A stretch of 64,000 bases of DNA from Escherichia coli. GTDB taxonomy: Bacteria; Pseudomonadota; Gammaproteobacteria; Enterobacterales; Enterobacteriaceae. The notes below the pieces were generated by a model. The model made no database searches. It was given only the letters and a program-made list of their open reading frames with translations, and was not told where the DNA came from. This document shows, piece after piece, positions 3,270 through 64,000 of the stretch (positions within the stretch are counted from its first letter, which is position 1; every line of letters begins with the position of its first letter). The translations under genes and the position numbers were made by a program. Where the stretch lies: the NCBI RefSeq assembly GCF_050920415.1, contig NZ_CP169309.1. One strand, written 5' to 3'.

Positions 3270-3275
3270 GACTCC

Positions 3276-4457
3276 TTAGCGTTCAACGATCGCGATGCGG
3301 CGGTTATAGATATTCATCAGCAGCGAGATAGTCAGGCTGATAATCAGATAGACCGACATGGTCATGGCTATCGTCTCGATGGCTTGCCCCGTCTGGTTCA
3401 GCACGGTGCCAGCAAACAGCGAAACCATATCGGGATAGCCAATAGCGGCGGCAAGAGAGGAGTTTTTGACGATGTTGAGATACTGGCTGGTTAACGGTGG
3501 AATAATCACCCGCAGTGCCTGGGGAATAATGACCTGGCGTAGCGTAACCGGGTTGGGTAATCCCAGTGACCGAGCAGCTTCATGTTGACCATAAGGCACT
3601 GCCTGGATCCCAGCGCGGATAATCTCGGCGATAAATGCAGAGGTATAAACCGAAAGTGCCAGCGTTAAGGCTGCCAGTTCAGGAATTAAAACCATCCCGC
3701 CACGGAAGTTAAAGCCTCGTAGGGCTGGAACATCCCAGTGTAGTGCTGCGCCAAAAAGCCATTGCGCCAGTAAAGGCAAACCGATGATCAACACAACGGC
3801 GACCGGCCAGGTTCGGCGCAATTGTCCGGTCTTTATCTGGTACGTTTTATTAAAACGGAATATTCCAACAGAAATGGCTATAGCAATAACAACAGTCAGG
3901 ATAAACGCAATAAATCCGTCTCCCAGCTGCGGCGACGGAATATAAAGCCCACGATTGCTTAAAAAGGCCAGATCAAACGCACTCACTGCCTGGCGTGGTC
4001 CGGGCAAATTGCGCAACACGGCAAAGTACCAGAAGAAGATTTGCAGTAGCGGCGGAATATTACGGAAGATCTCAATATAAATTGTGGAAAGCTTTCGTAG
4101 CAGCCAGTTATCCGAAAGTCGTGCCAGACCGATAAAGAAGCCCAGAACAGAAGCGAATACAATACACAATGCAGAAACCAGCAGCGTATTGAGTAAGCCA
4201 ACAATGAAAACGCGTCCGTAGGTATCACCCTGCTGGTAATCGATCAAATGCTGGACAATACCGAAGCCAGCGCCGCGATCCAGAAAGGCAAAACCCGAAG
4301 TAATGCCACGATTACTGAGATTCGTCACAGTGTTGTGAAATAGCCAACCAACAATGCCGACAACAGCAACAACGGCAAGGATCTGGAATAACCAGGCGCG
4401 AACCGTAGGGTTGGCAAAGGAGAGTGAGCCTTTAACGGTTGAGCGGCGATGAGACAT
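3276..4457 (-). CDS. yhdX: amino-acid ABC transporter permease
   Basis: Membrane permease ORF; the track ORF extends to 4475, internal Met MSHRRSTVKG chosen to match the ~393-aa length I expect. Confidence 0.85.
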   Translation of the reverse strand: MSHRRSTVKGSLSFANPTVRAWLFQILAVVAVVGIVGWLFHNTVTNLSNRGITSGFAFLDRGAGFGIVQHLIDYQQGDTYGRVFIVGLLNTLLVSALCIVFASVLGFFIGLARLSDNWLLRKLSTIYIEIFRNIPPLLQIFFWYFAVLRNLPGPRQAVSAFDLAFLSNRGLYIPSPQLGDGFIAFILTVVIAIAISVGIFRFNKTYQIKTGQLRRTWPVAVVLIIGLPLLAQWLFGAALHWDVPALRGFNFRGGMVLIPELAALTLALSVYTSAFIAEIIRAGIQAVPYGQHEAARSLGLPNPVTLRQVIIPQALRVIIPPLTSQYLNIVKNSSLAAAIGYPDMVSLFAGTVLNQTGQAIETIAMTMSVYLIISLTISLLMNIYNRRIAIVER

Positions 4458-4524
4458 AGAAACCTCGGAAAGCATAACGCTGAAGAGAGCGCCGCCGTAG
4501 CGACGCTCGTTACCTCACACCGAC

Positions 4525-19156: not shown

Positions 19157-20133
19157 GAGTGGGTTCCGTACTCTTTGTTTAGTGTGATTGTGACAGGCGT
19201 TTCACCGCCGTCTGTAAAGCGTATGCCCCGACAGCTGTATGCATAGCGATAAATTCCAGCAGGCCGGGACGCCGGTCTATTTTGCCCCAGAGTGTCAATG
19301 TTAGACTTGACGGACATTGTGCAGCGATCTGCTGCTATCCTCCGGCAAAAAACAAAATATACCTTCGTTGCGCCAATGTCACCTTTTCCGCAGCGCAAAA
19401 ACTGCGTCAGGGAGGACGAGGTCGCACATTATAACGATTTCGTAGCAATTGGCAGCTAAATACTGGTCTTATCAGGGAAGATAATCAACAGCTAACATGT
19501 AAATAACCTTCAACACCGTGTAATTTGCAACAAGCCGCACAATTCACGAAATTAGCGCTATCGTCGACGGAACTTCTTATAACGTAAGGCTAAAAGCTGT
19601 AAAGCCAGCTCTGCGAAGATGAGGGGCTGCAATGAGATGATCCTCACAGACCACAAATAATGTAGGGATGTCAGGATCGCGGCAAGATAGACGACATTAC
19701 GCAGCGGTTGCTGGTGATTACTCAATTTTCACGGCATCGTCTGGATAAACGTGAATGCTAAAGCACGCAAAATCAACAAACTGACAATGCTCAGCATCAA
19801 ATACGTTCGAGTGGTTAATTTGTAGGCAAATAAAATCAGATTATTCACCCCATGGTACCAGAAATCAGTAACAGGTTAAGCGTAGCGTCGCCCAGGCAAA
19901 GCACCATAAACCTAACAGGCGACGGAGGCGTATCAATAATGGCTGTTTAGTGGAGTAACAGTGCGCATCAATTTATGGTCAGTCGAAATCATGACTTTCC
20001 AGTTTGGATGATGTTGTACAACTTCATGACCAAGATGTTCGACGAAAGCTGTCCGGCTAACCGCTTTTCCCGTTAACCGATTGAATAATGATTTCAAAAT
20101 GAGTTCCCTCTCTTATTAATCCTTGCTAAATGG

Positions 20134-28342: not shown

Positions 28343-31300
28343 GTGAGGCGATTGCCGGGGATTTTACTGCTTACTGGAGCCGCGCTCGTTGTGATCGCTG
28401 CCCTGCTGGTTAGCGGCCTGCGTATTGCTTTACCGCATCTTGACGCCTGGCGTCCGGAAATCCTTAACAAAATAGAATCCGCGACTGGCATGCCGGTAGA
28501 AGCCAGTCAGCTCTCAGCCAGCTGGCAGAATTTTGGCCCGACGCTTGAAGCACACGACATCCGTGCAGAACTAAAAGATGGCGGCGAATTTTCGGTTAAA
28601 CGCGTTACGCTGGCGCTGGATGTCTGGCAAAGCCTGTTACATATGCGCTGGCAGTTTCGTGATCTCACTTTCTGGCAGCTGCGCTTTCGCACCAACACTC
28701 CTATCACCAGCGGTGGTGGTAATGATAGCCTGGAAGCCAGTCACATCAGCGATCTGTTTCTTCGTCAATTCGACCATTTCGATCTCCGTGACAGCGAAGT
28801 CAGTTTCCTGACGCCATCCGGTCAGCGTGCTGAGCTGGCGATTCCACAACTCACCTGGCTAAACGATCCACGTCGACACCGTGCGGAAGGCCAGGTAAGC
28901 CTCTCCAGCCTTACCGGACAGCACGGCGTGATGCAGGTGCGCATGGATCTGCGTGATGACGAAGGGCTGTTAAGCAACGGTCGTGTCTGGCTCCAGGCGG
29001 ATGACATCGACCTGAAGCCGTGGCTGGGTAAATGGATGCAGGACAATATTGCGCTGGAAACGGCACAGTTCTCCCTTGAAGGCTGGATGACGATCGATAA
29101 AGGCGATGTAACCGGCGGCGACGTCTGGCTGAAACAGGGCGGTGCCAGCTGGTTGGGTGAGAAGCAAACGCATACGCTGTCGGTGGATAATCTGACTGCG
29201 CACATTACGCGTGAAAATCCGGGCTGGCAGTTCTCTATTCCCGATACACGGATCACGATGGACGGTAAACCCTGGCCGAGTGGAGCATTGACGCTGGCCT
29301 GGATACCGGAACAGGACGTTGGCGGCAAAAACAATAAACGCAGTGACGAACTTCGGATTCGCGCCAGTAATCTGGAGTTGGCTGGACTGGAAGGCATACG
29401 CCCGCTGGCCGCGAAACTTTCACCTGCGTTGGGTGAGGTTTGGCGCGCCACACAACCGAGCGGCAAGATAAACACGCTGGCGCTGGATATCCCGCTTCAG
29501 GCAGCAGACAAGACCCGTTTTCAGGCATCGTGGAGCGATCTGGCCTGGAAGCAATGGAAATTATTGCCAGGTGCGGAACACTTCTCCGGGACGCTTTCCG
29601 GCAGCGTAGAAAATGGTTTGCTTACCGCGTCGATGAAACAGGCGAAGATGCCTTACGAAACGGTATTCCGTGCACCACTGGAAATCGCCGACGGCCAGGC
29701 AACTATAAGCTGGCTGAACAATGACAAAGGTTTCCAGCTGGATGGGAGTGATATTGACGTTAAAGCCAAAGCCGTCCATGCGCGCGGCGGTTTTCGTTAC
29801 CTGCAACCTGCTAACGATGAACCCTGGCTGGGTATTCTGGCTGGCATCAGTACCGATGATGGTTCACAAGCCTGGCGCTATTTCCCGGAAAACTTGATGG
29901 GTAAAGACCTGGTTGATTACTTAAGTGGCGCGATTCAGGGCGGTGAAGCGGATAACGCGACGCTGGTTTATGGTGGCAATCCGCAACTCTTCCCCTATAA
30001 ACACAACGAAGGTCAGTTTGAAGTGCTGGTGCCGCTGCGCAACGCGAAGTTTGCCTTCCAGCCGGACTGGCCTGCATTAACTAACCTTGATATTGAACTG
30101 GACTTTATTAACGACGGTTTATGGATGAAAACCGATGGCGTTAATCTGGGCGGCGTGCGCGCGAGTAATCTCACCGCAGTGATCCCTGACTACTCGAAAG
30201 AAAAACTGCTGATTGACGCTGAAATTAAAGGTCCGGGTAAAGCCGTTGGCCCTTACTTTGATGAGACACCGCTGAAAGATTCTCTGGGGGCGACCCTGCA
30301 AGAACTCCAGCTCGACGGCGATGTGAATGCTCGCTTACATCTTGATATCCCGCTGAACGGCGAACTGGTAACCGCGAAAGGTGATGTGACGCTGCGTAAT
30401 AACAGTCTGTTTATCAAACCACTCGACAGCACCCTGAAAAATTTGAGCGGTAAATTCAGCTTTATCAATGGCGATCTGCAAAGTGAACCACTGACAGCAA
30501 GCTGGTTTAATCAGCCGTTGAACGTGGATTTTTCCACCAAAGAAGGGGCAAAGGCCTACCAGGTCGCGGTGAATCTCAACGGTAATTGGCAACCAGCGAA
30601 AACCGGCGTTCTGCCTGCAGCGGTGAACGAAGCATTGAGTGGCAGCGTGGCGTGGGATGGTAAAGTGGGCATTGTTCTGCCTTATCATGCTGGCGCGACG
30701 TATAACGTAGAGCTAAACGGTGATCTGAAGAATGTGAGCAGTCACTTACCTTCACCGTTAGCCAAACCCGCTGGCGAATCGCTGCCGGTTAACATTAAGG
30801 TCGATGGCAACCTCAATAGCTTTGAATTAACCGGACAGGCTGGTGCGGATAACCATTTCAATAGCCGCTGGTTGCTCGGTCAAAAGCTGACGCTCGACCG
30901 TGCTATTTGGGCGGCAGACAGTAAAACGCTCCCGCCGTTGCCGGAACAAAGTGGTGTTGAACTCAATATGCCGCCGATGAATGGTGCCGAGTGGCTGGCC
31001 CTGTTCCAGAAAGGTGCGGCGGAGAGTGTCGGTGGTGCAGCGAGTTTCCCACAACACATAACGTTACGTACGCCTATGTTGTCGCTGGGAAATCAGCAAT
31101 GGAATAACCTGAGTATTGTTTCGCAACCGACGGCAAATGGCACCCAGGTTGAGGCGCAAGGGCGTGAAATCAACGCCACGCTGGCGATGCGTAATAACGC
31201 GCCGTGGCTGGCGAATATCAAATATCTTTATTACAACCCGAGCGAGGCGAAAACTCGTGGTGATTCAACGCCGTCATCACCTTTCCCGACAACGGAGCGC

Positions 31301-32143
31301 ATTAACTTCCGTGGCTGGCCGGACGCACAAATACGATGCGCAGAGTGCTGGTTCTGGGGGCAAAAATTCGGTCGTATTGACAGTGATCTCACCATTTCTG
31401 GCGATACATTAACGCTGACCAATGGACTGATTGATACCGGTTTTTCGCGGCTCACTGCCGATGGTGAATGGGTTAACAATCCGGGAAATGAACGCACCTC
31501 GCTGAAAGGAAAACTGCGCGGGCAGAAAATTGATGCCGCCGCAGAATTTTTTGGTGTCACGACGCCCATACGCCAGTCGTCATTTAATGTGGATTACGAT
31601 TTACACTGGCGCAAAGCACCCTGGCAGCCAGATGAGGCGACGTTGAATGGCATCATTCATACTCAACTGGGTAAAGGCGAAATTACCGAAATCAATACCG
31701 GACATGCCGGGCAATTGCTGCGCTTATTGAGCGTAGATGCCCTGATGCGTAAGCTGCGTTTTGATTTCAGAGACACTTTTGGCGAAGGGTTCTATTTTGA
31801 CTCTATTCGCAGCACCGCGTGGATTAAAGACGGCGTTATGCACACCGACGACACGCTGGTGGATGGCCTGGAAGCGGACATCGCTATGAAAGGGTCGGTA
31901 AATCTGGTACGTCGCGACCTGAATATGGAAGCGGTTGTCGCACCAGAGATTTCTGCGACGGTGGGTGTGGCTGCGGCCTTTGCGGTTAACCCCATTGTTG
32001 GCGCGGCAGTGTTTGCCGCCAGTAAAGTGCTGGGGCCGCTGTGGAGCAAAGTCTCCATTTTGCGCTATCACATTTCGGGTCCGCTGGACGATCCGCAAAT
32101 CAACGAAGTGTTGCGCCAACCGCGTAAAGAAAAAGCGCAATGA
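28343..32143 (+). CDS. yhdP: large AsmA-like envelope protein (phospholipid transport)
   Basis: 1266 aa with N-terminal TM anchor MRRLPGILLLTGAALVVIAALLVSGL; follows rng. Confidence 0.93.
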   Translation: MRRLPGILLLTGAALVVIAALLVSGLRIALPHLDAWRPEILNKIESATGMPVEASQLSASWQNFGPTLEAHDIRAELKDGGEFSVKRVTLALDVWQSLLHMRWQFRDLTFWQLRFRTNTPITSGGGNDSLEASHISDLFLRQFDHFDLRDSEVSFLTPSGQRAELAIPQLTWLNDPRRHRAEGQVSLSSLTGQHGVMQVRMDLRDDEGLLSNGRVWLQADDIDLKPWLGKWMQDNIALETAQFSLEGWMTIDKGDVTGGDVWLKQGGASWLGEKQTHTLSVDNLTAHITRENPGWQFSIPDTRITMDGKPWPSGALTLAWIPEQDVGGKNNKRSDELRIRASNLELAGLEGIRPLAAKLSPALGEVWRATQPSGKINTLALDIPLQAADKTRFQASWSDLAWKQWKLLPGAEHFSGTLSGSVENGLLTASMKQAKMPYETVFRAPLEIADGQATISWLNNDKGFQLDGSDIDVKAKAVHARGGFRYLQPANDEPWLGILAGISTDDGSQAWRYFPENLMGKDLVDYLSGAIQGGEADNATLVYGGNPQLFPYKHNEGQFEVLVPLRNAKFAFQPDWPALTNLDIELDFINDGLWMKTDGVNLGGVRASNLTAVIPDYSKEKLLIDAEIKGPGKAVGPYFDETPLKDSLGATLQELQLDGDVNARLHLDIPLNGELVTAKGDVTLRNNSLFIKPLDSTLKNLSGKFSFINGDLQSEPLTASWFNQPLNVDFSTKEGAKAYQVAVNLNGNWQPAKTGVLPAAVNEALSGSVAWDGKVGIVLPYHAGATYNVELNGDLKNVSSHLPSPLAKPAGESLPVNIKVDGNLNSFELTGQAGADNHFNSRWLLGQKLTLDRAIWAADSKTLPPLPEQSGVELNMPPMNGAEWLALFQKGAAESVGGAASFPQHITLRTPMLSLGNQQWNNLSIVSQPTANGTQVEAQGREINATLAMRNNAPWLANIKYLYYNPSEAKTRGDSTPSSPFPTTERINFRGWPDAQIRCAECWFWGQKFGRIDSDLTISGDTLTLTNGLIDTGFSRLTADGEWVNNPGNERTSLKGKLRGQKIDAAAEFFGVTTPIRQSSFNVDYDLHWRKAPWQPDEATLNGIIHTQLGKGEITEINTGHAGQLLRLLSVDALMRKLRFDFRDTFGEGFYFDSIRSTAWIKDGVMHTDDTLVDGLEADIAMKGSVNLVRRDLNMEAVVAPEISATVGVAAAFAVNPIVGAAVFAASKVLGPLWSKVSILRYHISGPLDDPQINEVLRQPRKEKAQ

Positions 32144-32199
32144 TTTGACGAGGGCGCGTAATTGCCCCAATCTCATATGATAATCGTTGCCAAAGGCCA

Positions 32200-32255
32200 A
32201 CGAGCCGGAACATAACCGTAGGCCGGATAGGGCGTTCACGCCGCATCCGGCAGCC
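32200..32255. repeat. REP (repetitive extragenic palindromic) element
   Basis: GCCGGATAGGGCGTTCACGCCGCATCCGGC, a typical REP consensus, between yhdP and tldD. Confidence 0.75.
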
Positions 32256-32283
32256 GTAAAAAATCCTCTACTGCAGTAACTAA

Positions 32284-33744
<1,461 letters not shown>

Positions 33745-33754
33745 TCTATCCAGG

Positions 33755-33822
33755 CAGGTAAGCGCCGCATCAGGCATTGGTTGCCGGATGCGGCATAAAC
33801 GCCTTATCCGGCCTCCGCACAT
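33755..33822. repeat. REP element between convergent tldD and aaeR
   Basis: GCCGCATCAGGCATTGGTTGCCGGATGCGGCATAAACGCCTTATCCGGCC. Confidence 0.75.
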
Positions 33823-33825
33823 GAA

Positions 33826-34755
33826 CTACTTCTCTTTCCCGCGCCCGTGCATCTCCTGAAACAATTTACCGACCTCAACAAAATAATCCGTTAGCGAGTT
33901 GATCACGACTTGTACCTTCAGCGGCAGCTTATCTTTTTCGGTATATAACGCATAAACCGGGCGTGGATCTGACTGGTAACGTGGTAGCAGGATCTCGAGT
34001 TCCCCGCGATTGATCTCGTTGATCACCCACATCAGCGGCACGTAGGCGATCCCAGCGCCTGCAGTCAGCCAGCGCACCAGCGTCATCGGATCATTAGTCA
34101 CAAATCTCCCTTGCGGGATCAGGCGAGTCGAGATCCCTTCCGGTGCGATCAGTTCAAATTCATTGTCGGGTCGCACGCTGTATTCAAGCCATGAGTGACT
34201 ACTTAAATCGGCGGGTTTTTCCGGTATGCCGTATTGTGTGAGATAACTTTTTGCGGCGCACACCACCATTGGCATCGCGCCCAGACGGCGGGAAAACAGG
34301 CTGGAATCTTGCAACGCGCCGACGCGGATCACCACATCCAGACCGTCGGCAATCAGGTCGGGGGCAGGAATTCCGGTAACCAGATTAACGCTCAAACCTG
34401 GGTATTCTTTCAGCATCTTGGCTGTTAGCCCGGCGAGAACATTTTGTGCCATAGTTGAAGAACAGCCAATGCGCAGCGTCCCGATGGGGGTGTTATTGAA
34501 GGCATACAGTTGCTCATGAACATCCTGCACTTCATGAAGCATCCGACGGCAGCCCTGGTAGTAAATTCTACCGGCTTCGGTCAGGCCAATGCTGCGTGTG
34601 CTACGGTTTAACAGCTTTACCTGCAACTCATCTTCCAGTTTTGACACCGTCTGACTGATGGACGAAACGCTCATCTGTAGCTGTCTGGCGGCGGCGGTAA
34701 AAGAGCCAAATTCAACTACTTTGGCAAACACCGACATGCGTTTTAGTCGTTCCAT
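33826..34755 (-). CDS. aaeR: LysR-family transcriptional activator of aaeXAB
   Basis: 309 aa with N-terminal LysR HTH (MERLKRMSVFAKVVEFGSFTAAARQLQMSVSSISQTVSKLEDELQVKLL); divergent from aaeX. Confidence 0.92.
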   Translation of the reverse strand: MERLKRMSVFAKVVEFGSFTAAARQLQMSVSSISQTVSKLEDELQVKLLNRSTRSIGLTEAGRIYYQGCRRMLHEVQDVHEQLYAFNNTPIGTLRIGCSSTMAQNVLAGLTAKMLKEYPGLSVNLVTGIPAPDLIADGLDVVIRVGALQDSSLFSRRLGAMPMVVCAAKSYLTQYGIPEKPADLSSHSWLEYSVRPDNEFELIAPEGISTRLIPQGRFVTNDPMTLVRWLTAGAGIAYVPLMWVINEINRGELEILLPRYQSDPRPVYALYTEKDKLPLKVQVVINSLTDYFVEVGKLFQEMHGRGKEK

Positions 34756-34937
34756 TATTCACTCTGACTTAAAAGTGATTTAGATCACATAATATAGATA
34801 ACAGCATAACAGTTACGTTAATATATTAAATATCAATCTACAGCAATGTTGCTCTCGCCCGGCTTTCCATGCCCTTCTCTGCGGCGACAGATGCTGAAAA
34901 TAATAACGCCTGCTCTCTCTATACAACCAAGGTCAAC

Positions 34938-35141
34938 ATGAGTCTGTTTCCCGTTATCGTGGTGTTTGGGCTGTCCTTCCCACCGATATTTTTCGAATTG
35001 CTTTTATCACTGGCGATTTTCTGGCTGGTGCGCCGGGTACTTGTGCCAACAGGTATCTACGACTTTGTCTGGCATCCGGCGTTGTTCAACACCGCGCTCT
35101 ATTGCTGCTTGTTTTATTTGATATCGCGACTGTTCGTTTGA
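34938..35141 (+). CDS. aaeX: small membrane protein AaeX
   Basis: 67 aa, [67 protein letters not shown]; track ORF is extended upstream. Confidence 0.9.
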
Positions 35142-35148
35142 GGTTGAA

Positions 35149-36081
35149 GTGAAAACACTAATAAGAAAATTCTCCCGTACGGCCATCACGGTCGTATTAG
35201 TCATTCTGGCCTTCATCGCAATTTTTAATGCCTGGGTCTATTACACCGAATCCCCGTGGACGCGTGACGCGCGCTTTAGCGCTGACGTCGTTGCGATCGC
35301 GCCGGACGTTTCTGGACTCATTACCCAGGTGAATGTTCATGATAACCAGCTGGTGAAAAAAGGACAGGTACTGTTCACCATCGACCAGCTGCGTTATCAA
35401 AAGGCGCTTGAGGAAGCGCAAGCCGATGTTGCTTATTATCAGGTACTGGCACAGGAGAAACGCCAGGAGGCCGGACGTCGTAACCGTCTCGGTGTGCAGG
35501 CGATGTCTCGCGAAGAGATCGATCAGGCCAACAACGTACTACAAACGGTTCTGCATCAGTTAGCGAAAGCGCAGGCGACCCGCGATCTGGCAAAACTGGA
35601 TCTTGAACGCACGGTGATCCGCGCGCCAGCAGATGGCTGGGTGACCAACCTCAACGTCTATACCGGTGAGTTTATTACCCGTGGATCAACGGCGGTTGCG
35701 CTGGTGAAACAGAACTCCTTCTATGTACTGGCCTATATGGAAGAAACTAAGCTGGAAGGGGTGCGCCCTGGGTATCGTGCAGAGATCACGCCGCTTGGCA
35801 GTAACAAAGTGCTGAAAGGGACTGTTGATAGTGTTGCTGCTGGGGTCACCAACGCCAGCAGCACGCGTGACGACAAAGGGATGGCGACCATCGACTCTAA
35901 CCTTGAATGGGTGCGTTTGGCGCAACGTGTTCCGGTTCGTATTCGTCTCGACAACCAGCAAGAGAACATCTGGCCTGCGGGCACCACTGCTACAGTGGTG
36001 GTCACTGGCAAACAAGATCGCGACGAAAGCCAGGATTCGTTCTTCCGTAAAATGGCCCATCGCCTGCGTGAGTTTGGTTAA
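35149..36081 (+). CDS. aaeA: p-hydroxybenzoic acid efflux pump, membrane fusion subunit
   Basis: 310 aa, HlyD-like, with N-terminal TM segment. Confidence 0.93.
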
Positions 36082-36086
36082 TCACG

Positions 36087-38043
36087 ATGGGTATTTTCTC
36101 CATTGCTAACCAACATATTCGCTTTGCGGTAAAACTGGCGACCGCCATTGTACTGGCGCTGTTTGTTGGCTTTCACTTCCAGCTGGAAACGCCACGCTGG
36201 GCGGTACTGACAGCGGCGATTGTTGCCGCCGGTCCGGCCTTTGCTGCGGGAGGTGAACCGTATTCTGGCGCTATTCGCTATCGTGGCTTTTTGCGCATCA
36301 TCGGCACATTTATTGGCTGTATTGCCGATCATTGCGATGATCCGCGCACCATTATTGATGATTCTGGTGTGCTGTATTTGGGCCGGTTTTTGTACCTGGA
36401 TTTCCTCGCTGGTACGAATAGAAAACTCCTATGCGTGGGGGTTGGCTGGTTATACCGCGCTGATCATTGTGATTACCATTCAGCCGGAACCGCTTCTTAC
36501 GCCGCAGTTTGCCGTCGAACGTTGTAGCGAGATCGTTATCGGTATTGCGTGTGCAATTATGGCGGATTTGCTCTTTTCTCCGCGATCGATCAAACAAGAA
36601 GTGGATCGAGAGCTGGAAAGTTTGCTGGTCGCGCAATATCAATTAATGCAACTCTGTATCAAGCATGGCGATGGTGAAGTTGTCGATAAAGCCTGGGGCG
36701 ATCTTGTGCGACGCACCACGGCGTTACAAGGTATGCGCAGCAACCTGAATATGGAATCTTCCCGCTGGGCGCGGGCCAATCGACGTTTAAAAGCGATCAA
36801 TACGCTATCGCTGACGCTGATTACCCAATCCTGCGAAACTTATCTTATTCAGAATACGCGCCCGGAATTGATCACTGATACTTTCCGCGAATTTTTTGAC
36901 ACGCCGGTAGAAACCGCGCAGGACGTCCACAAGCAGCTCAAACGCCTGCGGAGAGTTATCGCCTGGACCGGGGAACGGGAAACGCCTGTCACCATTTATA
37001 GCTGGGTCGCGGCGGCAACGCGTTATCAGCTTCTCAAGCGCGGCGTTATCAGTAACACAAAAATCAACGCTACTGAAGAAGAGATCCTGCAAGGCGAACC
37101 GGAAGTCAAAGTAGAGTCAGCCGAACGTCATCATGCGATGGTTAACTTCTGGCGAACCACACTTTCCTGCATTCTGGGGACGCTTTTCTGGCTGTGGACG
37201 GGCTGGACTTCCGGCAGTGGTGCAATGGTGATGATTGCGGTAGTGACGTCACTGGCAATGCGTTTGCCGAATCCACGCATGGTGGCGATCGACTTTATTT
37301 ATGGGACGCTGGCGGCGCTGCCGTTAGGGCTACTCTACTTTTTGGTGATTATCCCTAATACCCAACAAAGCATGTTATTGCTGTGTATTAGCCTGGCAGT
37401 GCTGGGATTCTTCCTTGGCATTGAAGTACAGAAACGGCGATTGGGCTCGATGGGGGCGCTGGCCAGCACCATAAACATTATCGTGCTGGATAACCCGATG
37501 ACTTTCCATTTCAGTCAGTTTCTCGACAGCGCATTAGGGCAAATCGTCGGCTGTGTGCTCGCGTTCACCGTTATTTTGCTGGTGCGGGATAAATCGCGCG
37601 ACAGGACTGGACGTGTACTGCTTAATCAGTTTGTTTCTGCCGCTGTTTCCGCGATGACTACCAATGTGGCACGTCGTAAAGAGAATCACCTCCCGGCACT
37701 TTATCAGCAGCTGTTTTTGCTGATGAATAAGTTCCCAGGGGATTTGCCGAAATTTCGCCTGGCACTGACGATGATTATCGCGCACCAGCGCCTGCGTGAT
37801 GCGCCGATCCCGGTTAACGAGGATTTATCGGCGTTTCACCGGCAAATGCGCCGCACAGCAGACCATGTGATATCTGCCCGTAGCGATGATAAACGTCGTC
37901 GGTACTTTGGCCAGTTGCTGGAAGAACTGGAAATCTACCAGGAAAAGCTACGCATCTGGCAAGCGCCACCGCAGGTGACGGAACCAGTACATCGGCTTAC
38001 GGGTATGCTCCATAAGTATCAACATGCGTTGACCGATAGTTAA
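36087..38043 (+). pseudogene. aaeB: p-hydroxybenzoic acid efflux pump subunit AaeB, apparently frameshifted near 36327
   Basis: Recognisable AaeB sequence is split between a 146-aa frame-1 ORF (36087..36527) and a 607-aa frame-2 ORF (36220..38043). The span is 1957 nt, not a multiple of 3, versus ~1968 nt expected for the 655-aa protein I recall, so an ~11-bp deletion after ...TFIGCIA is likely. Confidence 0.75.
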
Positions 38044-38046
38044 GTC

Positions 38047-38076
38047 AAAACCGACGCCAAAAGCGTCGGTTTTTTC
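38047..38076 (+). terminator. rho-independent terminator after aaeB
   Basis: AAAACCGACGCCAAAAGCGTCGGTTTTTTC: hairpin plus T-run. Confidence 0.8.
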
Positions 38077-38134
38077 ATGGCTATACTTAGCAATGAACGG
38101 CAGAACTCGCCGCGAAACGTGACGGTGGCAACAG

Positions 38135-38407
38135 ATGAATATTTATACCTTTGATTTTGATGAGATTGAGAGTCAGGAGGATTTTTATCGCGACTTTAGC
38201 CAAACCTTTGGTCTGGCAAAAGATAAAGTACGCGATCTCGACTCTCTATGGGATGTGTTAATGAACGATGTCCTGCCGCTACCACTTGAGATTGAATTTG
38301 TTCATCTGGGAGAGAAAACGCGTCGCCGTTTTGGCGCGTTAATATTGCTGTTTGATGAGGCAGAGGAAGAGCTGGAAGGGCATTTGCGTTTTAATGTTCG
38401 TCATTAG
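38135..38407 (+). CDS. yhcO: barstar-like ribonuclease inhibitor family protein
   Basis: 90 aa, [90 protein letters not shown]; barstar-like by recall. Confidence 0.85.
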
Positions 38408-38410
38408 CGC

Positions 38411-38435
38411 AAAAAAAAGCCCCCGAACCGGGGGC
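38411..38435. terminator. bidirectional hairpin terminator between yhcO and yhcN
   Basis: AAAAAAAAGCCCCCGAACCGGGGGC. Confidence 0.7.
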
Positions 38436-38462
38436 AATATCGTCGGACAAGACGATGAGGGT

Positions 38463-38726
38463 TTATTTGTACAGTTCAGCCGTAGCGTGCCAGGTGTCAC
38501 CGCTACGAGCTTCAGTAATCTGGTAGGCCGTTGCGCCTTTCTCTTCCGCTTTTTTGTTCAGCATTTCACGCATATCCATTGGCGAAGACGCCACACCACT
38601 TACGGATACGGTCCCGATTGCTTCACGATTTTGTGCTTGTGCAGCATCAATGGAGTCGGCAGCGAATGCACCGAAAGAGAGAACAGAAAGTACGCTTAAT
38701 GCAGCAACAGTGGTTTTGATTTTCAT
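38463..38726 (-). CDS. yhcN: small periplasmic stress-induced protein (DUF1471/YhcN family)
   Basis: 87 aa from MKIKTTVAALSVLSVLSFGAFA (signal peptide); track ORF is extended upstream. Confidence 0.85.
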   Translation of the reverse strand: MKIKTTVAALSVLSVLSFGAFAADSIDAAQAQNREAIGTVSVSGVASSPMDMREMLNKKAEEKGATAYQITEARSGDTWHATAELYK

Positions 38727-39090
38727 GATTTTTACCTCGACATAATCTTTTAGCTGGGCCTTTGTTTCGTGACCCATATCACAAAATCAAGTATACACTA
38801 ATTATTGAACTAATTAATACCACGCTAACTGTTTCAGTTGATACTAAGTGTTAAAAGTGTGAGTTTTAATAACAAAAAAGAATTAAAAACACGGTTATTT
38901 ATTATTAATTCTATTATTTTCAATTAGATAATGAATTTTGCATAATGTGCTTTTTTTAACTCATGTATTCATTATGTGAATGATATGTCGCGTTAAAACG
39001 CACTATTCGTTAAATTAATCGTAGGAGAAAGCAGGGGGATGAGAGGGAAAAGCAACATTTTCCCCGCCGCCAGAAGCGACGGGGCAGAGA

Positions 39091-39564
<474 letters not shown>

Positions 39565-39591
39565 TCACCCGATATGGTGGTTGATACAACA

Positions 39592-39630
39592 TTATTGTGC
39601 ATACAGATGAATTTTTATGCAAACAGTCAG
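39592..39630 (-). promoter_or_regulatory. putative ARG boxes (ArgR autoregulation) in the argR promoter
   Basis: On the argR strand: TTTGCATAAAAATTCATCTGTATGCACAATAAT, resembling the TGAAT-w4-ATTCA ARG-box consensus; assignment by eye. Confidence 0.4.
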
Positions 39631-39920
39631 CCCTGAAGAAGGCTGAAATAATGTTATGAAAGAGCGGGATTTTATCAAATTTCGTTATTGAGAAACATGC
39701 CTGCGTCACGGCATGCAAATTCTGCTTAAAAGTAAATTAATTGTTATCAAATTGATGTTGTTTTGGCTGAACGGTAGGGTATATTGTCACCACCTGTTGG
39801 AATGTTGCGCTAATGCATAAGCGACTGTTAATTACGTAAGTTAGGTTCCTGATTACGGCAATTAAATGCATAAACGCTAAACTTGCGTGACTACACATTC
39901 TTGAGATGTGGTCATTGTAA

Positions 39921-40934
<1,014 letters not shown>

Positions 40935-56635: not shown

Positions 56636-57805
56636 TCAGGAAGTTTCTCTTGCTGTCACTACGCCATTTTGCGCAGCCCACAGATTCACATCTTCCTTAC
56701 GAATGGCGGCGGCCATCATGCCGGGGAATAAATCAGGGGTACAGGCAAAGGAGGGAATACCCATGGCGGCGAGTTTTCCTGCCAGTGACCGGTCGTAAAA
56801 CGGTGCGCCTTCGTCGCTTAAGGCCAGCAGGGTAACCACCTGTACGCCGGACTGAATCAACTCACTGGCGCGTTGCAACAGATTGCGTTCCACACCACCT
56901 TCGTAGAGGTCGGAAATCAGCACCAGAATGGTATTACGCGGATCGCGAATCAAAGACTGGCAGTAACCTACCGCGCGGTTGATGTCGGTGCCGCCGCCCA
57001 GCTGCACGCCAAACAGCAGCTCTACCGGATCGTCGAGCTTCTCTGTCATATCAACCACTGCGGTGTCGAAAACCACCAGATGCGTTTTTACCGCCGGGAG
57101 CGATGCCATTACTGCGCCAAAAATACTGGAATAGACCACCGAGGAGGCCATCGACCCACTCTGGTCGATACATAAAATGATCTCCTTTTGCGTGCGTTGA
57201 GACTTGCGCCCGTAGCCGATTAACGTTTCAGGAACAATACTTTTGTACTCTTCCTGCCAGTGGCGCAGGTTGGCGCGAATGGTGCGCTGCCAGTCAATTT
57301 CCGCGTGGCGCGGGCGACGATTACGTACCGCACGATTAAGAGCGCCGCTTACCGCGCTACGCATTGGCTCTTCAAGCTGTTTCATCAATTGCTCGACAAC
57401 TTTACGCACCACAATCCTGGCGGTTTCTTTGGTTTTGGCCGGAATTACGCCATTCAGCGACATCAGCGTGGAGACCAGATGAACATCAGGCTGGACGTTT
57501 GCCAGCATCTCTGGCTCCAGCAACATACTGTGCAAATTAAGACGTTCAAAGGCGTCTTTTTGCATCACCTGAACCACAGAAGAGGGGAAATACTGGCGAA
57601 TATCACCCAGCCAGCGAGCGACTTTGGGTGACGATCCACCCGTGCCGCCGCGTAATCCATGTTTACCGTCTGGCTGATAGAGCGCCGCCAGCGCGGCATC
57701 AATCGCGGACTCTCTGGCATCCAGCGCCACGTTACAGGCATTGTCGGCATCTTCTCCAAGGATCAGACGCCAGCGGCGCAGCCGTTCCATCTCGTTACTC
57801 GACAT
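56636..57805 (-). CDS. von Willebrand factor type A (vWA) domain protein; last gene of five-gene operon
   Basis: 389-aa ORF with MIDAS-like motif D-x-S-x-S (ILCIDQSGSM) and downstream vWA-like hydrophobic strands; overlaps the upstream gene by 11 nt. Confidence 0.8.
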   Translation of the reverse strand: MSSNEMERLRRWRLILGEDADNACNVALDARESAIDAALAALYQPDGKHGLRGGTGGSSPKVARWLGDIRQYFPSSVVQVMQKDAFERLNLHSMLLEPEMLANVQPDVHLVSTLMSLNGVIPAKTKETARIVVRKVVEQLMKQLEEPMRSAVSGALNRAVRNRRPRHAEIDWQRTIRANLRHWQEEYKSIVPETLIGYGRKSQRTQKEIILCIDQSGSMASSVVYSSIFGAVMASLPAVKTHLVVFDTAVVDMTEKLDDPVELLFGVQLGGGTDINRAVGYCQSLIRDPRNTILVLISDLYEGGVERNLLQRASELIQSGVQVVTLLALSDEGAPFYDRSLAGKLAAMGIPSFACTPDLFPGMMAAAIRKEDVNLWAAQNGVVTARETS

Positions 57806-60044
57806 GATTTTCCCTTTCGTGTGGTGGCAAAGCCAGAATGCGGCGCAGTAGCGGCAGCATTAACGCGGCACGCTGTTCATCCCATATACCGCTGGTCTCT
57901 TCTTGCTGCGCGACACGCTCGCCCTGCGCGGCGCGTTCGCCTAACTGGCGGCGTTCCGGGCTGGAAAAACGGCCGAATGTCCGCCGCAGCATCGGCAGGA
58001 TCCGGGTGAAGTGATTGTCGTTCAGGCCGCTTAGCCAGGCATCGATCAACTGCCATAATTCGCTATTGTGCAGTAGCACCATCGCGCTGTCGTTGAGGAA
58101 ACCTTCCGCCCATGCGGCACTTTCCGCCGGGGGATTGGCTGGCGATAGCGCCAGGTTCATCAGCGTGGTGATCCGTTCTGTCGTTAACGTTTGCAGATCA
58201 AACAACAGGCGCGTCGCCGTTCCGCGAAGCAGCGCGTGTGCGGTACTGCCCTCTGCCAGCACCATCAACGCCTGCAACCAGCCCGCCAACAGATCTTCGT
58301 TATCCAGCAACCGCAGCGCGGCGTGAGCGTCGATAACTTTTTCTCTCATACTGGCGGCGCTGTCGTCGTTGAGCGCCGAACAGGCACCGGGTAGGGCGAT
58401 GGCGGCGCGCGGGGCGAGGCTCATCAGTACCTGCATTACCATACCAGAGTCGGTCTGGCGCACGTTGCCGTAGCGGACAATCGCCACCAGCGGTGCCAGG
58501 GCTTCCAGCAACTGTTCGATATTGCCCTGAGTGGCAGCCAGTGATTCCAGTGTATTGGCGATGGGGGCAATCGCGGCCTGTAAATCGGCCAGTAGCACTT
58601 GTTGGATAAGCTTTGCCAGTTCCGGCAGCGTGCTGGCGTATTGCGCCCTCACAATGGCATAGCGGGAGCTGGCCTGCTCAATGCTGTTACCCCAACGGCT
58701 GGCGGTAATGATGTTCATTGCCAGTGCCGGTTCCCAGCGCAGCGACCAGACTTCGTGGAACGTCCCTTTGCTGTTATTTCCTTGTCCAGCCAGACGGCCC
58801 CAGGAAATGTCGAGTAAGGTCAGGCGATGCAGTAAATGGCTACGCGCCAGATCGCCGGGTTTGCGCAGATCAAGATCCAGCACTTTTTCGCTGGCTTCTG
58901 CCTTCAGGCGCAGCGTTTTTTGCTGTTGCGTAATGTCGCGTTGGAGCGGCACGACGGGCGTATCATCCGGTACGCTTCCCAGCGCGTCGCCGACAATTAA
59001 CTTCTGGCGAATCATCTGCATTGGCGCGCTTTCGCCCATACACACTACGGTTTGCAGCGCTTCGCAAAGTTCGTCAAGCCCCGGCTGCGGGTGATGGCGC
59101 ATAATCGCCAGCGTCTGCGCCAGCCGCGCCGCTTCGATAATGTGGGCGCTGGAACAGTCGAGATCGGCTTCGCGAAACAGCCTTGCCGCGCGTGACAGCC
59201 AGCCGATATCGCGGTGAGAAGCGCCCTGATAACGCCACAGATGATCGTACCATTCCGGTGACACCACCCCTGCGCCATAACCGCTGGCGCGGCTTAACGC
59301 CTCGTAGCTCCAGGGCGTCCAGGCTGCCGCGACCTTGCACTTCGGCAAATTTTTCAGCAGTTCGTTATCATTCTTTGCGGGCGGCAGGTTTTCCAGCGCC
59401 GGAACGTGCCACGCACCGCAGACTACCGCGATGCGCGAGAAGCCCTCTTTTTTCGCCTGACGTAGCGTCTTGCGCATATACGCTTCACGCAGTTGATCTC
59501 TGGCTGAGTTTCGGGCTTCGGGAGTTGCCTGGCGTAGGGCAATCATCGCCTCGCGAATCGCCTCGAACAGAGACAAATCATCTTCGCGTTCCTCTACTCT
59601 GTGGCTCCACCAGCTTTCCCCATCGGTGTAACCGGCGGCGCGGCCCAGCCAGTCCAGCGGATCGCCGTCGGGACTGGCTTCAACGGCATCATCGTCATCG
59701 CTCTCTTTTTCGTCATCAAGCGCGAACTGATGACTGATGGGCAAGTCCATAAAGCGCACGGCGATATTTTGCTCAAAACCATAGCGCAGCGCCTGCCATT
59801 CCGGGGAGAACGCCGCAAAGGGGTAAAACGCGGCGTGATGTGAGTCGTCCGGGGCATAAATCAGTAGCGCGACCGGCGGTTGCATCTGTTCATGCTGCAT
59901 GAAAGGCAGGATGGATTCGCCGTCGGGCGGCCCTTCCACCAGCAGGCAGTCGGGCTGTAGCGTCTCCAGCGCCTTTCGCAGGCTGCGCGCGCAGCCAGGG
60001 CCATGGTGACGGATGCCAAACAAATGAACGGTTTGTTCAGTCAT
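57795..60044 (-). CDS. large uncharacterized protein (749 aa), Leu/Ala-rich helical; fourth gene of operon
   Basis: Long uninterrupted ORF with acidic stretch DDEKESDDDDAVEASPDGDP; no motif I can assign by eye. Possibly the DUF5682 family (from memory, unverified). Confidence 0.7.
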   Translation of the reverse strand: MTEQTVHLFGIRHHGPGCARSLRKALETLQPDCLLVEGPPDGESILPFMQHEQMQPPVALLIYAPDDSHHAAFYPFAAFSPEWQALRYGFEQNIAVRFMDLPISHQFALDDEKESDDDDAVEASPDGDPLDWLGRAAGYTDGESWWSHRVEEREDDLSLFEAIREAMIALRQATPEARNSARDQLREAYMRKTLRQAKKEGFSRIAVVCGAWHVPALENLPPAKNDNELLKNLPKCKVAAAWTPWSYEALSRASGYGAGVVSPEWYDHLWRYQGASHRDIGWLSRAARLFREADLDCSSAHIIEAARLAQTLAIMRHHPQPGLDELCEALQTVVCMGESAPMQMIRQKLIVGDALGSVPDDTPVVPLQRDITQQQKTLRLKAEASEKVLDLDLRKPGDLARSHLLHRLTLLDISWGRLAGQGNNSKGTFHEVWSLRWEPALAMNIITASRWGNSIEQASSRYAIVRAQYASTLPELAKLIQQVLLADLQAAIAPIANTLESLAATQGNIEQLLEALAPLVAIVRYGNVRQTDSGMVMQVLMSLAPRAAIALPGACSALNDDSAASMREKVIDAHAALRLLDNEDLLAGWLQALMVLAEGSTAHALLRGTATRLLFDLQTLTTERITTLMNLALSPANPPAESAAWAEGFLNDSAMVLLHNSELWQLIDAWLSGLNDNHFTRILPMLRRTFGRFSSPERRQLGERAAQGERVAQQEETSGIWDEQRAALMLPLLRRILALPPHERENHVE

Positions 60045-60061
60045 AGTGGTTGCCTTGCTGA

Positions 60062-61156
60062 TTACACAATTTCGCGGCAGGCGCGATAGAGATCGTTCCA
60101 GTCGCTGCGCTCTTTGACGATAGTTTCCAGATATTCACGCCATACCACGTCGTCCTGCACGGGATCTTTTACCACCGCGCCGATAAGGCTTGCGGCGATA
60201 TCCCGCGGATGCAGCACGCCGTCGCCAAAATGGCCCGCCAGCGCCATACCGTTGTTGATAACGGAGATCGCCTCCGCGGTGCTGAGAGTACTGGTTGGCG
60301 ACTTAATTTTCGTTTTGCCGTCAACCGTCAGGCCGTTTCGCAGTTCGCGGAAGATTTGCACGACTCGCTGGATCTCTTTAAGCGCTGGCGGTTTGGCAGG
60401 AAGTGCCAGCGCCTGACCCAGTTCGGCGACGCGGCGAGTGACAATGTTAATCTCTTCTTCTTCGCTGGCGGGTACGGGCAAAATGACCGTGTTGAAACGA
60501 CGTTTAAGCGCGGAAGAAAGCTCGTTAACGCCTTTATCCCGGTTGTTGGCGGTGGCGATAACGTTAAAGCCGCGCGTCGCCTGGACCTCTTCATTCAGTT
60601 CGGGGATAGGCAGCGTTTTTTCCGACAGGATCGTGATCAGCGTGTCCTGAACATCAGCAGGAATACGCGTCAGCTCTTCTACGCGTGCAATCTGCCCGCG
60701 CGCCATCGCCCGCATCAACGGACTTTCTACCAGCGCCAAACGTGACGGACCTTTAGAGAGCAACTCCGCGTAGTTCCAGCCATAACGCATTTGTTCTTCA
60801 CCGGTGCCTGCGGTGCCCTGAATAATTAACGTTGAGTCGCCGCTGATGGCAGCCGCCAGATGTTCAGATACCCAGGATTTCGCAGTGCCGGGTACGCCAT
60901 ACAACAGCAGTGCGCGATCGGTTGGCAGCGTGGCAACGGCGGTTTCGATAATCCGCCGGTTGCCGATATATTTCGGCGTGACCTCAAAGCCATTTTCCAG
61001 CTGCCCGCCCAACAGATAGGTGGCGACGGACCATGGAGAAATGGCCCAGTTTTCCGGGCGCGGATGAGTATCGTTTTTTTGCAGCTCATCCAGTTCTTCA
61101 GCAAATTGTTGTTCGGCATGTCGGCGTAAAACGGCGGCAGTAGCGGTAGCATTCAT
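60062..61156 (-). CDS. MoxR-like AAA+ ATPase (AAA_5-type); third gene of operon
   Basis: 364 aa; Walker A LLLYGVPGTAKSW; Walker-B-like IARVEEL followed by IPADVQDTLITILSE (compare MoxR/CbbQ hhhhDE..RAxPxVQxALLExMxE); ATGA overlap with upstream gene. Confidence 0.85.
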   Translation of the reverse strand: MNATATAAVLRRHAEQQFAEELDELQKNDTHPRPENWAISPWSVATYLLGGQLENGFEVTPKYIGNRRIIETAVATLPTDRALLLYGVPGTAKSWVSEHLAAAISGDSTLIIQGTAGTGEEQMRYGWNYAELLSKGPSRLALVESPLMRAMARGQIARVEELTRIPADVQDTLITILSEKTLPIPELNEEVQATRGFNVIATANNRDKGVNELSSALKRRFNTVILPVPASEEEEINIVTRRVAELGQALALPAKPPALKEIQRVVQIFRELRNGLTVDGKTKIKSPTSTLSTAEAISVINNGMALAGHFGDGVLHPRDIAASLIGAVVKDPVQDDVVWREYLETIVKERSDWNDLYRACREIV

Positions 61157-62757
61157 AAAGTGGTTTCTCCGACAAAAAGCGAATTAAGTTGAATTCGGTT
61201 CGCCAGCGCGGCGCTCAGGGCAGTAAAGGCTGCCTCGCAATAAGGCGTTTGTTGTGCGTCGTGCGGCCACTTGTCAATGACATCATTGAGGACTTCGGGG
61301 GCCAGCAGGCAGGCGAAATCACTCATCACATGGCGCAGGGCGTAGTCAAAGCGCGCGGAATCATATTTCACCCAACGGTGTAGCTCCGTGACCATTTGCT
61401 GGCTCAGGCGCAGGCTAAAGAGCGACGCATCCAGCGGTAACAGGCTGATGTAGCGATGTAAATGTTCGCCGCCCACCACTGAGAACAATGACCGTAACAT
61501 CGGCTCGTGTTCTTCTACAGGCAGACATTGCAAAAGCTCAAAGGCGTTAATCTTCACGCCTGCAGGATGATGAATGCTCATTCCGACGGGCAGCATGGCG
61601 AGAAACGCCTGCGCCCACTGCGGATTTTTTTCGCGCAGTACGGCGTGATACCAGGCGCGCAGTAGCGCCTTCTGCCAGTCGGTTTTCCCGGCCCAGCGCA
61701 GCAGTTCAACGGGGGTAGCCTGCAGTTGCGTTTGCCACCAGTCGAGCGGAACCGCTGCAACTATCTGATACAGCCACCATGCGCGCTGGCCCAACTTTTC
61801 GCCTTTGGGCTTAGTTTCTTCCAGCGCATCGGCCTTCCACTCTGGTAAGAACGCCTCCGGGGCATCAAGGGCGACGTGCAGCATTTTTTCTTTGCCGGAT
61901 AAGCCTTTTAGCCTTTCAAGTAAGGTCTCAGGAGCGGGGGATGAACTGAGCAACGGCGCTAACCGAGACTTCATGCGCGAGATCCAGGCGCTTTCCGGCA
62001 GACAACACAGTAACCGTGCCGCAGTTTGCCGCACCTCTTTGCTGCGATCGGATAATGTCTGTTCCAGAAAGGCTTCGTCGTGTTGGGAGATCTCCACTTC
62101 CAGCACAGCCAGCAGCTGTGCGCGTTCGCGGGCATCCAGCGAACTCATCTCCTGCGCCAGCCGATCGCGACCCTGTTCCGGGGCGCGAATGCGCATTTGC
62201 GTCAGATATTGCAGACGCTGTTCGGACGTGCCGTGCAGCCACATTTCTTCATCCAGCGGAGCGTCAACGGAGGCAAGAAAATAGCGCCAGTCGGCGTTAA
62301 TTTGCGCCAGCCAGCGCCCGCGAGCGCCGAGGACATTGGGCAGAATGCCGCGTATTGATGGATTTTGTACGCCGTAATTCAGCAGTGCCGGTAACAGCAG
62401 GGGCGGAGAAAGAAGCTGACGCTGGACCAGGTGATCAAGCGCTGACCACAGTAAACGCGGCGGCCCTTCTGCCAGCAACAGATGCAGCAGTCCCGCAAAA
62501 GCCGGGTTGTTTATTGGCTCGGCATTTTCTTTATCGATTTCCGGCAGCGGTGCGGGGTCAATCGCCTGCGGCACCCAGCCAGCCAGATGGCAGAGCGCCA
62601 GAACGCCCGCCGAGCGCAGTAGCTGTTGCTCTGCGGATGTGTTATTCGCCAGTTCAGACAGTAACAGCCCAATCTCACTTTGCGACGCCGACGGTGTGAA
62701 CGCTTTTTTGTCTGTGCCGAGTAGCGCTGTGCGGGTTAAATTTTGCCATTCGTTCAT
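61153..62757 (-). CDS. uncharacterized protein (~534 aa), Leu/Ala/Trp-rich helical; second gene of operon
   Basis: ORF 61153..62778 in the track; start chosen at the Met whose ATG forms an ATGA overlap with the SWIM gene stop (62754..62757). Possibly the DUF5691 family (from memory, unverified). Confidence 0.7.
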   Translation of the reverse strand: MNEWQNLTRTALLGTDKKAFTPSASQSEIGLLLSELANNTSAEQQLLRSAGVLALCHLAGWVPQAIDPAPLPEIDKENAEPINNPAFAGLLHLLLAEGPPRLLWSALDHLVQRQLLSPPLLLPALLNYGVQNPSIRGILPNVLGARGRWLAQINADWRYFLASVDAPLDEEMWLHGTSEQRLQYLTQMRIRAPEQGRDRLAQEMSSLDARERAQLLAVLEVEISQHDEAFLEQTLSDRSKEVRQTAARLLCCLPESAWISRMKSRLAPLLSSSPAPETLLERLKGLSGKEKMLHVALDAPEAFLPEWKADALEETKPKGEKLGQRAWWLYQIVAAVPLDWWQTQLQATPVELLRWAGKTDWQKALLRAWYHAVLREKNPQWAQAFLAMLPVGMSIHHPAGVKINAFELLQCLPVEEHEPMLRSLFSVVGGEHLHRYISLLPLDASLFSLRLSQQMVTELHRWVKYDSARFDYALRHVMSDFACLLAPEVLNDVIDKWPHDAQQTPYCEAAFTALSAALANRIQLNSLFVGETTL

Positions 62758-64000
62758 TGTGCGCCTCCGGTTGCCCAAATCACGCTACCGGCAAGCCAGG
62801 CGCTACAGGGCGTCAGCTGCTGACCATCCCATTCCCCCATTAGCATAAACGGCGCGCCGCCGCTGGCCGCCAGTAACCGCCAACCCTCGTCCGACGACAG
62901 GTGCGTCGGTAAGTGCTGGCCCTGTGTCGAGACGAATCGCCAGCCGCTCTCGTGCGGGTAAATCAATATTTCGCTTACTCGCAGCGGCAGAGGCCATTGC
63001 CAGGGATTCGCGCTAAGCCGCTGCGCCATGTCATGCAGCGCGTCCGGGAGGGGTAATTCTGCAAGCGGGAATCTTTCACCGCGGGTAAACGGCTCCACAA
63101 TCCGCGCCCGTAGCGGTGATGCGCCAGGGAAAAAGGCAAGCGCGCCCTGGCAGACTTGCCCGGTGATAAAGTGCTGGGGAAAGTTTTTACCACCGTGTGA
63201 ATAGTCCAGCAGTAGCGCGGTGCGGTGGCTCTTTTCTCCGTACAGCCAGACCCGGCGTCGCCACAGATTATTCTCTTCTTGCGCGCTTTGGCCTAAGACC
63301 TGCCAGTTATCAAGGCAGGTTAGTCCGTCAGCGATGTCATGTTTATCCGGGGTTATTCCCAATGCTGCATGGAGATCGCTAAGTTGTGCCGGGGATAACA
63401 TTTGTTGCTGGCGCCAGGCGTCAATAATCAGCTGTAGCTGCCCCAGTTCTTTGCACAGGCTCGATGGCCATACCTCGGCGGTAGTAAAAAGAGTGGTCAG
63501 ATTGTTCAGGCGAGCGGCAATTCCCGGTAGTTGAGCGTCGACCATGCGGGCGGCGATCCCGGCAAAAGGCAACTGTTGTGCAGAGATCTGCGCCAGACCG
63601 TGGCGGATCAGGTCGTGCATCCACTGTTCGAGGAAATCCAGCCCCGCCGTCATTTTTTGGTTGCGTGCCGCTTCCCGTTTGGCGGCAGCCTGCGGGTCGG
63701 CAGCTTTTGCCTCAGCCTGCTCTTTCTTTTCTTCTTTGCGAACCGCTCGCTGCTGGCGCGAGGTTAGCCACTCGCTTACCCATTCCGGCGGCTCGCCAGC
63801 GGTGAAACTTGCGGTGTGTTGCACCTGGAGCAAAAGCAACGCAAGGCTATGTTTACAGGGGAATTTACGGCTGGGGCAGGAACATTTACAGGCCAGATCC
63901 TGCCTGTCGACCCGTACCTGATAAGGGCGGGAGCCGCTGCCTTTACATTCTCCCCAGAACGCGGTCTCGCTATATCCCAGCGTCGGCCATTTTGCGGGGG
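62754..64000 (-). CDS. SWIM zinc-finger domain protein, 5'-truncated by the window edge; first visible gene of operon
   Basis: Hand translation upstream of the track ORF gives ...GECKGSGSRPYQVRVDRQDLACKCSCPSRKFPCKHSLALLLLQVQ..., a CxC-x(n)-CxH SWIM signature; no stop codon before position 64000, and the track ORF start is a TTG. Confidence 0.8.
   Translation of the reverse strand, partial: PAKWPTLGYSETAFWGECKGSGSRPYQVRVDRQDLACKCSCPSRKFPCKHSLALLLLQVQHTASFTAGEPPEWVSEWLTSRQQRAVRKEEKKEQAEAKAADPQAAAKREAARNQKMTAGLDFLEQWMHDLIRHGLAQISAQQLPFAGIAARMVDAQLPGIAARLNNLTTLFTTAEVWPSSLCKELGQLQLIIDAWRQQQMLSPAQLSDLHAALGITPDKHDIADGLTCLDNWQVLGQSAQEENNLWRRRVWLYGEKSHRTALLLDYSHGGKNFPQHFITGQVCQGALAFFPGASPLRARIVEPFTRGERFPLAELPLPDALHDMAQRLSANPWQWPLPLRVSEILIYPHESGWRFVSTQGQHLPTHLSSDEGWRLLAASGGAPFMLMGEWDGQQLTPCSAWLAGSVIWATGGAQ

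Follow-up and report, generated by a model that had tools for sequence, protein, structure and literature searches.

The AaeAB system of Escherichia coli is presented, in those parts of PMC11481567 and PMC8277102 that cite Van Dyk et al. 2004, as an AaeR-induced efflux system for p-hydroxybenzoate and aromatic carboxylates that is proposed to act as a metabolic relief valve. An MG1655 delta-aaeB mutant is viable with altered handling of 4-hydroxybenzoate (PMC11481567), and, as its cells retain 4-HB, the MIC of the 4-HB analogue DHB is higher for this mutant (PMC11481567). Viability together with the higher DHB MIC indicates that in some settings loss of aaeB can be neutral, or even an advantage.

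We analyzed the aae locus in a stretch of 64,000 nt from contig NZ_CP169309.1 of the E. coli assembly GCF_050920415.1, hereafter the window, whose numbering is used for all positions. The aaeB gene of the window resembles that of K-12 (yhcP) in its locus and synteny (tldD-aaeR / aaeXAB-yhcO), in its FUSC and NF007916 family membership and in its DNA, which outside a single gap is about 98% identical to K-12 and 100% identical to lineage relatives; unlike K-12 aaeB, it lacks 11 bp at codons 81-84 and its frame is broken. The nearest laboratory counterpart is the delta-aaeB mutant (Keio collection, MG1655; PMC11481567), which the window strain would by analogy resemble in making no AaeB, in being viable and in retaining 4-hydroxybenzoate, but which is a deliberate whole-gene replacement, whereas in the window 11 bp are lost without a scar from a background that is wild type and STEC-like. 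The nearest natural counterpart is a Logan contig (ERR13989417) in which aaeB (2518-4485 of that contig) has a C430T change converting Gln144 to TAG. Like the window, it displays a sporadic inactivation of aaeB that falls in the N-terminal membrane domain and leaves the other operon genes intact; it differs in being a nonsense substitution at another position, on DNA about 2% divergent, and is thus an independent event. We posit that a genuine, recent and strain-private 11-bp deletion has very probably made aaeB of the window strain a pseudogene. The features concerned are the following:

33826..34755, minus strand: aaeR, LysR-type activator, intact at 309 aa (DNA identical to MFDS1022581 aaeR, WP_000440317.1)
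34938..35141, plus strand: aaeX, small membrane protein, intact at 67 aa (MFDS1022581 annotation, identical DNA)
35149..36081, plus strand: aaeA, periplasmic adaptor, intact 310-aa frame with Leu81 (open reading frame; NF007850)
36087..38043, plus strand: aaeB remnant (probable pseudogene), 1957 nt bounded by the native start and stop codons (gap relative to 1968-nt relatives)
36087..36527, plus strand: predicted truncated product of 80 native and 66 out-of-frame residues, with TAG at 36525-36527 (open-reading-frame listing, residue comparison)
36327..36328, plus strand: deletion junction (alignment, base-by-base difference list, residue bookkeeping)
36328..38043, plus strand: C-terminal coding portion left out of frame, holding native residues 85-655 in the +1 frame (from residue 85 on, the same as AaeB of MFDS1022581)

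The deletion in aaeB, its lineage and its rarity

Alignment with the aaeB genes of K-12 MG1655 and MFDS1022581 places a single 11-bp gap, GACTGGTGATC, between 36327 and 36328; a sequence-only reading of the same DNA had proposed a deletion of about 11 bp near 36327, within 36300-36345, and was exact in both respects. The bases missing at the junction are bases 2-3 of codon 81 and the whole of codons 82-84 (Gly-Leu-Val-Ile). The junction reads ATT GCC GAT CAT TGC GAT GAT, with the breakpoint at GCCG/ATCATT, and the 25-mer that crosses it is TGTATTGCCGATCATTGCGATGATC, against GCCGGACTGGTGATCATCATT in the intact allele, where the 11 bp are present. Moving the gap by one base in either direction fails to reproduce the window; thus, the placement is unique and the breakpoint has no flanking microhomology. 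The removed bases constitute neither a homopolymer nor a tandem repeat. Two mechanistic routes to the deletion were considered and rejected, namely a repeat-mediated event, for which neither microhomology nor a repeat flanks the breakpoint, and a hairpin-mediated event through GATCATC/GATGATC, which folds no better than shuffled sequence (z = -1.08 before and -0.64 after the deletion).

The distance from native start to native stop, 1957 nt, is not divisible by 3, as the same reading had calculated, and its expectation of about 1968 nt agrees with the 1968 nt of aaeB in relatives, to which the remnant is 99.4% identical. Against MFDS1022581, the 11-bp gap is the only difference across the gene, and no compensating second indel was found in aaeB in that alignment. 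The frame is therefore disrupted relative to its orthologues, and since these are intact in close relatives (5,425 complete genomes and two draft assemblies of the same lineage, introduced below), the disrupted state is the derived one.

MFDS1022581 (NZ_CP169399.1), a Korean food isolate with a complete genome, aligns with the window from end to end, and the two differ in 13 columns, which comprise the 11-bp gap and two SNPs. The first SNP (30289, G/T) is synonymous in yhdP (Gly649, GGG in the window versus GGT). The yhdP allele of the window is the common one, matching 809 complete genomes exactly, so the change probably occurred on the MFDS1022581 side. The second (35390) gives AaeA codon 81 as CTG (Leu) in the window and CCG (Pro) in MFDS1022581. 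Closer still around the operon are two draft assemblies (GCA_015518365.1 and GCA_000194575.2), which are identical to window positions 31149..40070, a stretch of about 8.9 kb, save for the 11 bp, and whose aaeB encodes 655 aa. The second of these drafts (accession AEXD) is STEC strain 7V, an O2:H25, stx2g isolate from healthy cattle (PMC3491183). The exact match outside the 11 bp places the window strain in the STEC 7V (O2:H25) lineage and, as the deletion is the only difference in this stretch, indicates that the event is very recent on the lineage time scale.

An 80-nt probe centered on the junction matched 5,425 of 5,426 complete RefSeq E. coli genomes, all at 80-90% identity, the band expected of the 11-bp gap; hence, none of the 5,425 carries the deletion. 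The one remaining genome has no match to the probe at all, and a single plasmid record among 20,395 E. coli records holds a copy of the aaeB region. The 25-nt junction pattern was matched exactly neither in the GTDB set, which has one genome for each species, nor in metagenome contigs from JGI. At the protein level, none of the eight junction-bearing products (the 146-aa protein and seven start variants of the downstream frame that spans the junction) occurs in a collection of about 15 billion proteins, and an exact look-up of the 568-aa product returned no match; the only matches to the 494-aa C-terminal product are one nonsense allele and three fragments at contig ends, all on unrelated backgrounds. 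Outside the window the deletion allele is unrecorded, and the lesion is thus known from one sequence, without an independent replicate.

Several other features of the window may be recorded here. Its first 1165 nt hold the end of an rRNA operon, with the 3' end of the 23S gene (1-477), a 5S gene (666-781), a tRNA (935-1007, annotated as tRNA-Thr in MFDS1022581) and a second 5S gene (1050-1165), the two 5S copies being 97.7% identical. A partial msrQ/yedZ-like pseudogene fragment lies on the minus strand at 19558-19948, between accB and acuI (MFDS1022581 annotation). A five-gene cluster occupies 56636-64000 on the minus strand, between yhcG and gltD, and encodes, by the names in the MFDS1022581 annotation, a VWA-domain protein, a DUF5682 protein, an ATP-binding protein, a DUF5691 protein and a SWIM zinc-finger protein that is cut by the window end; its four complete proteins gave no match to the PADLOC defense models.

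Predicted consequences for the AaeB protein and the aaeXAB operon

In the intact protein, whose length of 655 aa in the relatives agrees with that given by the sequence-only reading, the FUSC domain (PF04632, Pfam) extends from residue 11 to residue 651, and an intact relative matches the NCBIfam AaeB equivalog NF007916 over residues 7-653 with 1219 bits, against a cut-off of 870 bits. These spans, together with the 655-aa frame of the relatives, rule out that native AaeB begins at the second reading frame, an outcome that would have overturned the initial interpretation, as would an intact single frame in the reference alignment, which the window does not have. In the window, the frame from 36087 to 36527 encodes 146 aa (found in a listing of open reading frames in 33000..40000) that begin as MGIFSIANQ...GTFIGCIA and continue into an unrelated tail, in agreement with the roughly 145 residues foreseen from the sequence. 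A second frame, 36220..38043, encodes 607 aa from a mechanically assigned TTG start and runs to the native C-terminus. The protein of MFDS1022581 is reproduced without change at residues 1-80 and again at 85-655, with nt 36328 corresponding to residue 85, so the division into 80 N-terminal residues in one frame and the remainder in another was correctly perceived, both parts matching intact AaeB exactly; the remaining 571 codons lie in a different frame from the first 80.

The family profile is divided in the same manner. The 146-aa frame covers profile positions 2-75 of the 648 in NF007916, with 140 bits, and the C-terminal frame covers positions 75-648 with 1051 bits. The gene therefore retains an AaeB/FUSC family match above the curated cut-off and the family operon context (aaeR / aaeX-aaeA-aaeB), but has no single continuous frame for the whole AaeB domain, the profile being split at position 75. 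By hydropathy scan, residues 81-84 fall where the protein is most hydrophobic, in a membrane-spanning block of residues 66-115, and the product of the native ATG comprises two and a half transmembrane segments followed by 66 missense residues. A sequence search of the PDB returned no structural relatives of AaeB.

The sequence shows that ribosomes initiating at ATG 36087 translate 80 native residues and pass into the +1 frame at 36327/36328, where 66 unrelated residues follow before the TAG at 36525-36527. Candidate internal starts for the downstream frame (ATG 36337, equivalent to Met88, ATG 36358 and several GTG/TTG codons) sit where the other frame is still being translated, the 20 nt upstream of them showed no suitably spaced Shine-Dalgarno-like sequence, and any restart product lacks at least the first 87 residues of the FUSC domain. 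The C-terminal part has no credible start or ribosome-binding site.

The remainder of the operon is open and full length, and the initial view of aaeX, aaeA and aaeR as intact holds, with the qualification that aaeA has Leu for Pro at codon 81. The aaeX gene is contained within a longer mechanically called frame (34869..35141), and AaeA scores 605 bits against the NCBIfam equivalog NF007850 (cut-off 400). With aaeB standing last in aaeXAB and yhcO following after a gap of 91 nt, other genes would not be expected to suffer polar effects. The strain would then make AaeR, AaeX and AaeA with no working AaeB, and p-hydroxybenzoate and related aromatic acids would consequently not be exported through AaeAB.

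Codon 81 of aaeA (35389-35391) reads CTG in the window, and Pro (CCG) in both K-12 and MFDS1022581. In alignments to EmrA and AcrA, residue 81 adjoins a conserved Asp-Pro at the lipoyl/hairpin junction of adaptor proteins, where the lipoyl domain ends, and an effect of Pro81Leu on AaeA is conceivable from this position. The exact AaeA protein of the window recurs in at least 24 other contigs (draft or Logan), all with aaeB intact, and the Leu81 protein is found on at least three DNA backgrounds, including the STEC 7V lineage mates; among complete RefSeq E. coli genomes, CTG at this codon was found with neither flanking haplotype. The deletion would thus have arisen inside the STEC 7V (O2:H25) lineage, with the Leu81 allele of AaeA already present. 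We also considered whether AaeA Pro81Leu is private to this strain as well, which would have placed both derived changes of the 64 kb within the 2.9 kb of aaeAB (chance about 0.045), and rejected this, given that the exact Leu81 protein occurs in at least 24 contigs, among them lineage mates with intact aaeB.

Alternative explanations for the lesion

An artefact of sequencing or assembly, by which the strain has an intact aaeB and the 11 bp were lost in consensus building, is unlikely, although it would account for the lesion being unique to the window sequence among all the collections searched. The lesion also abuts a short inverted repeat (GATCATC..GATGATC, 7 bp) and a GATC site. Consensus errors are usually indels of 1-2 bp at homopolymers or methylated motifs, and a clean loss of 11 bp in non-repetitive sequence is atypical of them. 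The window offers 74 homopolymer runs of at least 6 bases and 294 GATC sites at which such errors could show, yet it has no other indel relative to MFDS1022581, and this agreement with a near-identical finished genome points to a consensus of high quality. The hairpin itself is weak, being no more stable than shuffled sequence, and the Gln144 nonsense allele demonstrates that natural aaeB null alleles exist.

A more elaborate scenario takes the deletion to be genuine and regards it as the second step of a selected, stepwise shutdown of AaeAB in a cattle- and food-associated STEC lineage, with AaeA Pro81Leu, which the lineage shares, as the first. We consider this a slim prospect. Were it true, retained 4-hydroxybenzoate could help the strain, for instance against 4-HB antimetabolites such as 3,6-dihydroxy-1,2-benzisoxazole, whose MIC is higher for a delta-aaeB mutant (PMC11481567).

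That the lesion is engineered or artificial, either as a scarless laboratory knock-out or as a change put into the sequence record, is highly improbable. Inspection of the alignment does show that Cas9 could in theory cut at the left breakpoint, where the intact sequence has a TGG 3 nt to the 3' side, and an 11-bp frameshift is plausible as a design; however, we estimate that roughly one breakpoint in eight would meet such a PAM by coincidence. The window has no scar or cassette, no FRT/lox site and no silent marker change, the rest of the 64 kb is wild type for the lineage, and the relatives are wild food and cattle isolates.

Equally remote is the proposal that aaeB still functions through programmed +1 frameshifting, through re-initiation at an internal start or as two polypeptides that complement each other. 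As the frames share about 300 nt (36220..36527), a change of frame is geometrically possible, and the C-terminal frame alone passes the AaeB equivalog cut-off (1051 versus 870 bits). The split arrangement is nevertheless conserved nowhere, a single frame being present at this site in 5,425 of 5,425 genomes, and inspection of the junction revealed no in-frame stop, shifty motif or upstream SD-like stimulator; neither of the hallmarks of programmed frameshifting, a conserved arrangement and a slippery or stall site with a stimulator, is thus to be seen. The zero-frame stop lies 200 nt 3' of the junction, and even a perfect shift would leave the transmembrane segment short by Gly-Leu-Val-Ile. Re-initiation fares no better, given internal starts devoid of a Shine-Dalgarno sequence inside the translated upstream frame and products that have lost 87 or more residues of FUSC. 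On these features we reject programmed frameshifting, a native start at the second frame and a split gene that still functions.

Implications for the strain and its annotation

If the assembly is correct, the locus represents an ordinary strain-specific frameshift pseudogene of a well-characterized, non-essential efflux gene. It offers nothing new on how the pump works and matters little beyond annotation, for which we suggest that it be recorded as one aaeB pseudogene and not as two genes.

As regards physiology, the established work on the pump leads one to expect p-hydroxybenzoate hypersensitivity on loss of AaeB. For this strain we predict hypersensitivity to p-hydroxybenzoate and related aromatic acids, and it may conversely be less sensitive to antibiotics that compete with 4-HB. 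The allele also constitutes a unique isolate marker within the STEC 7V-like (O2:H25) lineage and could aid strain tracking.
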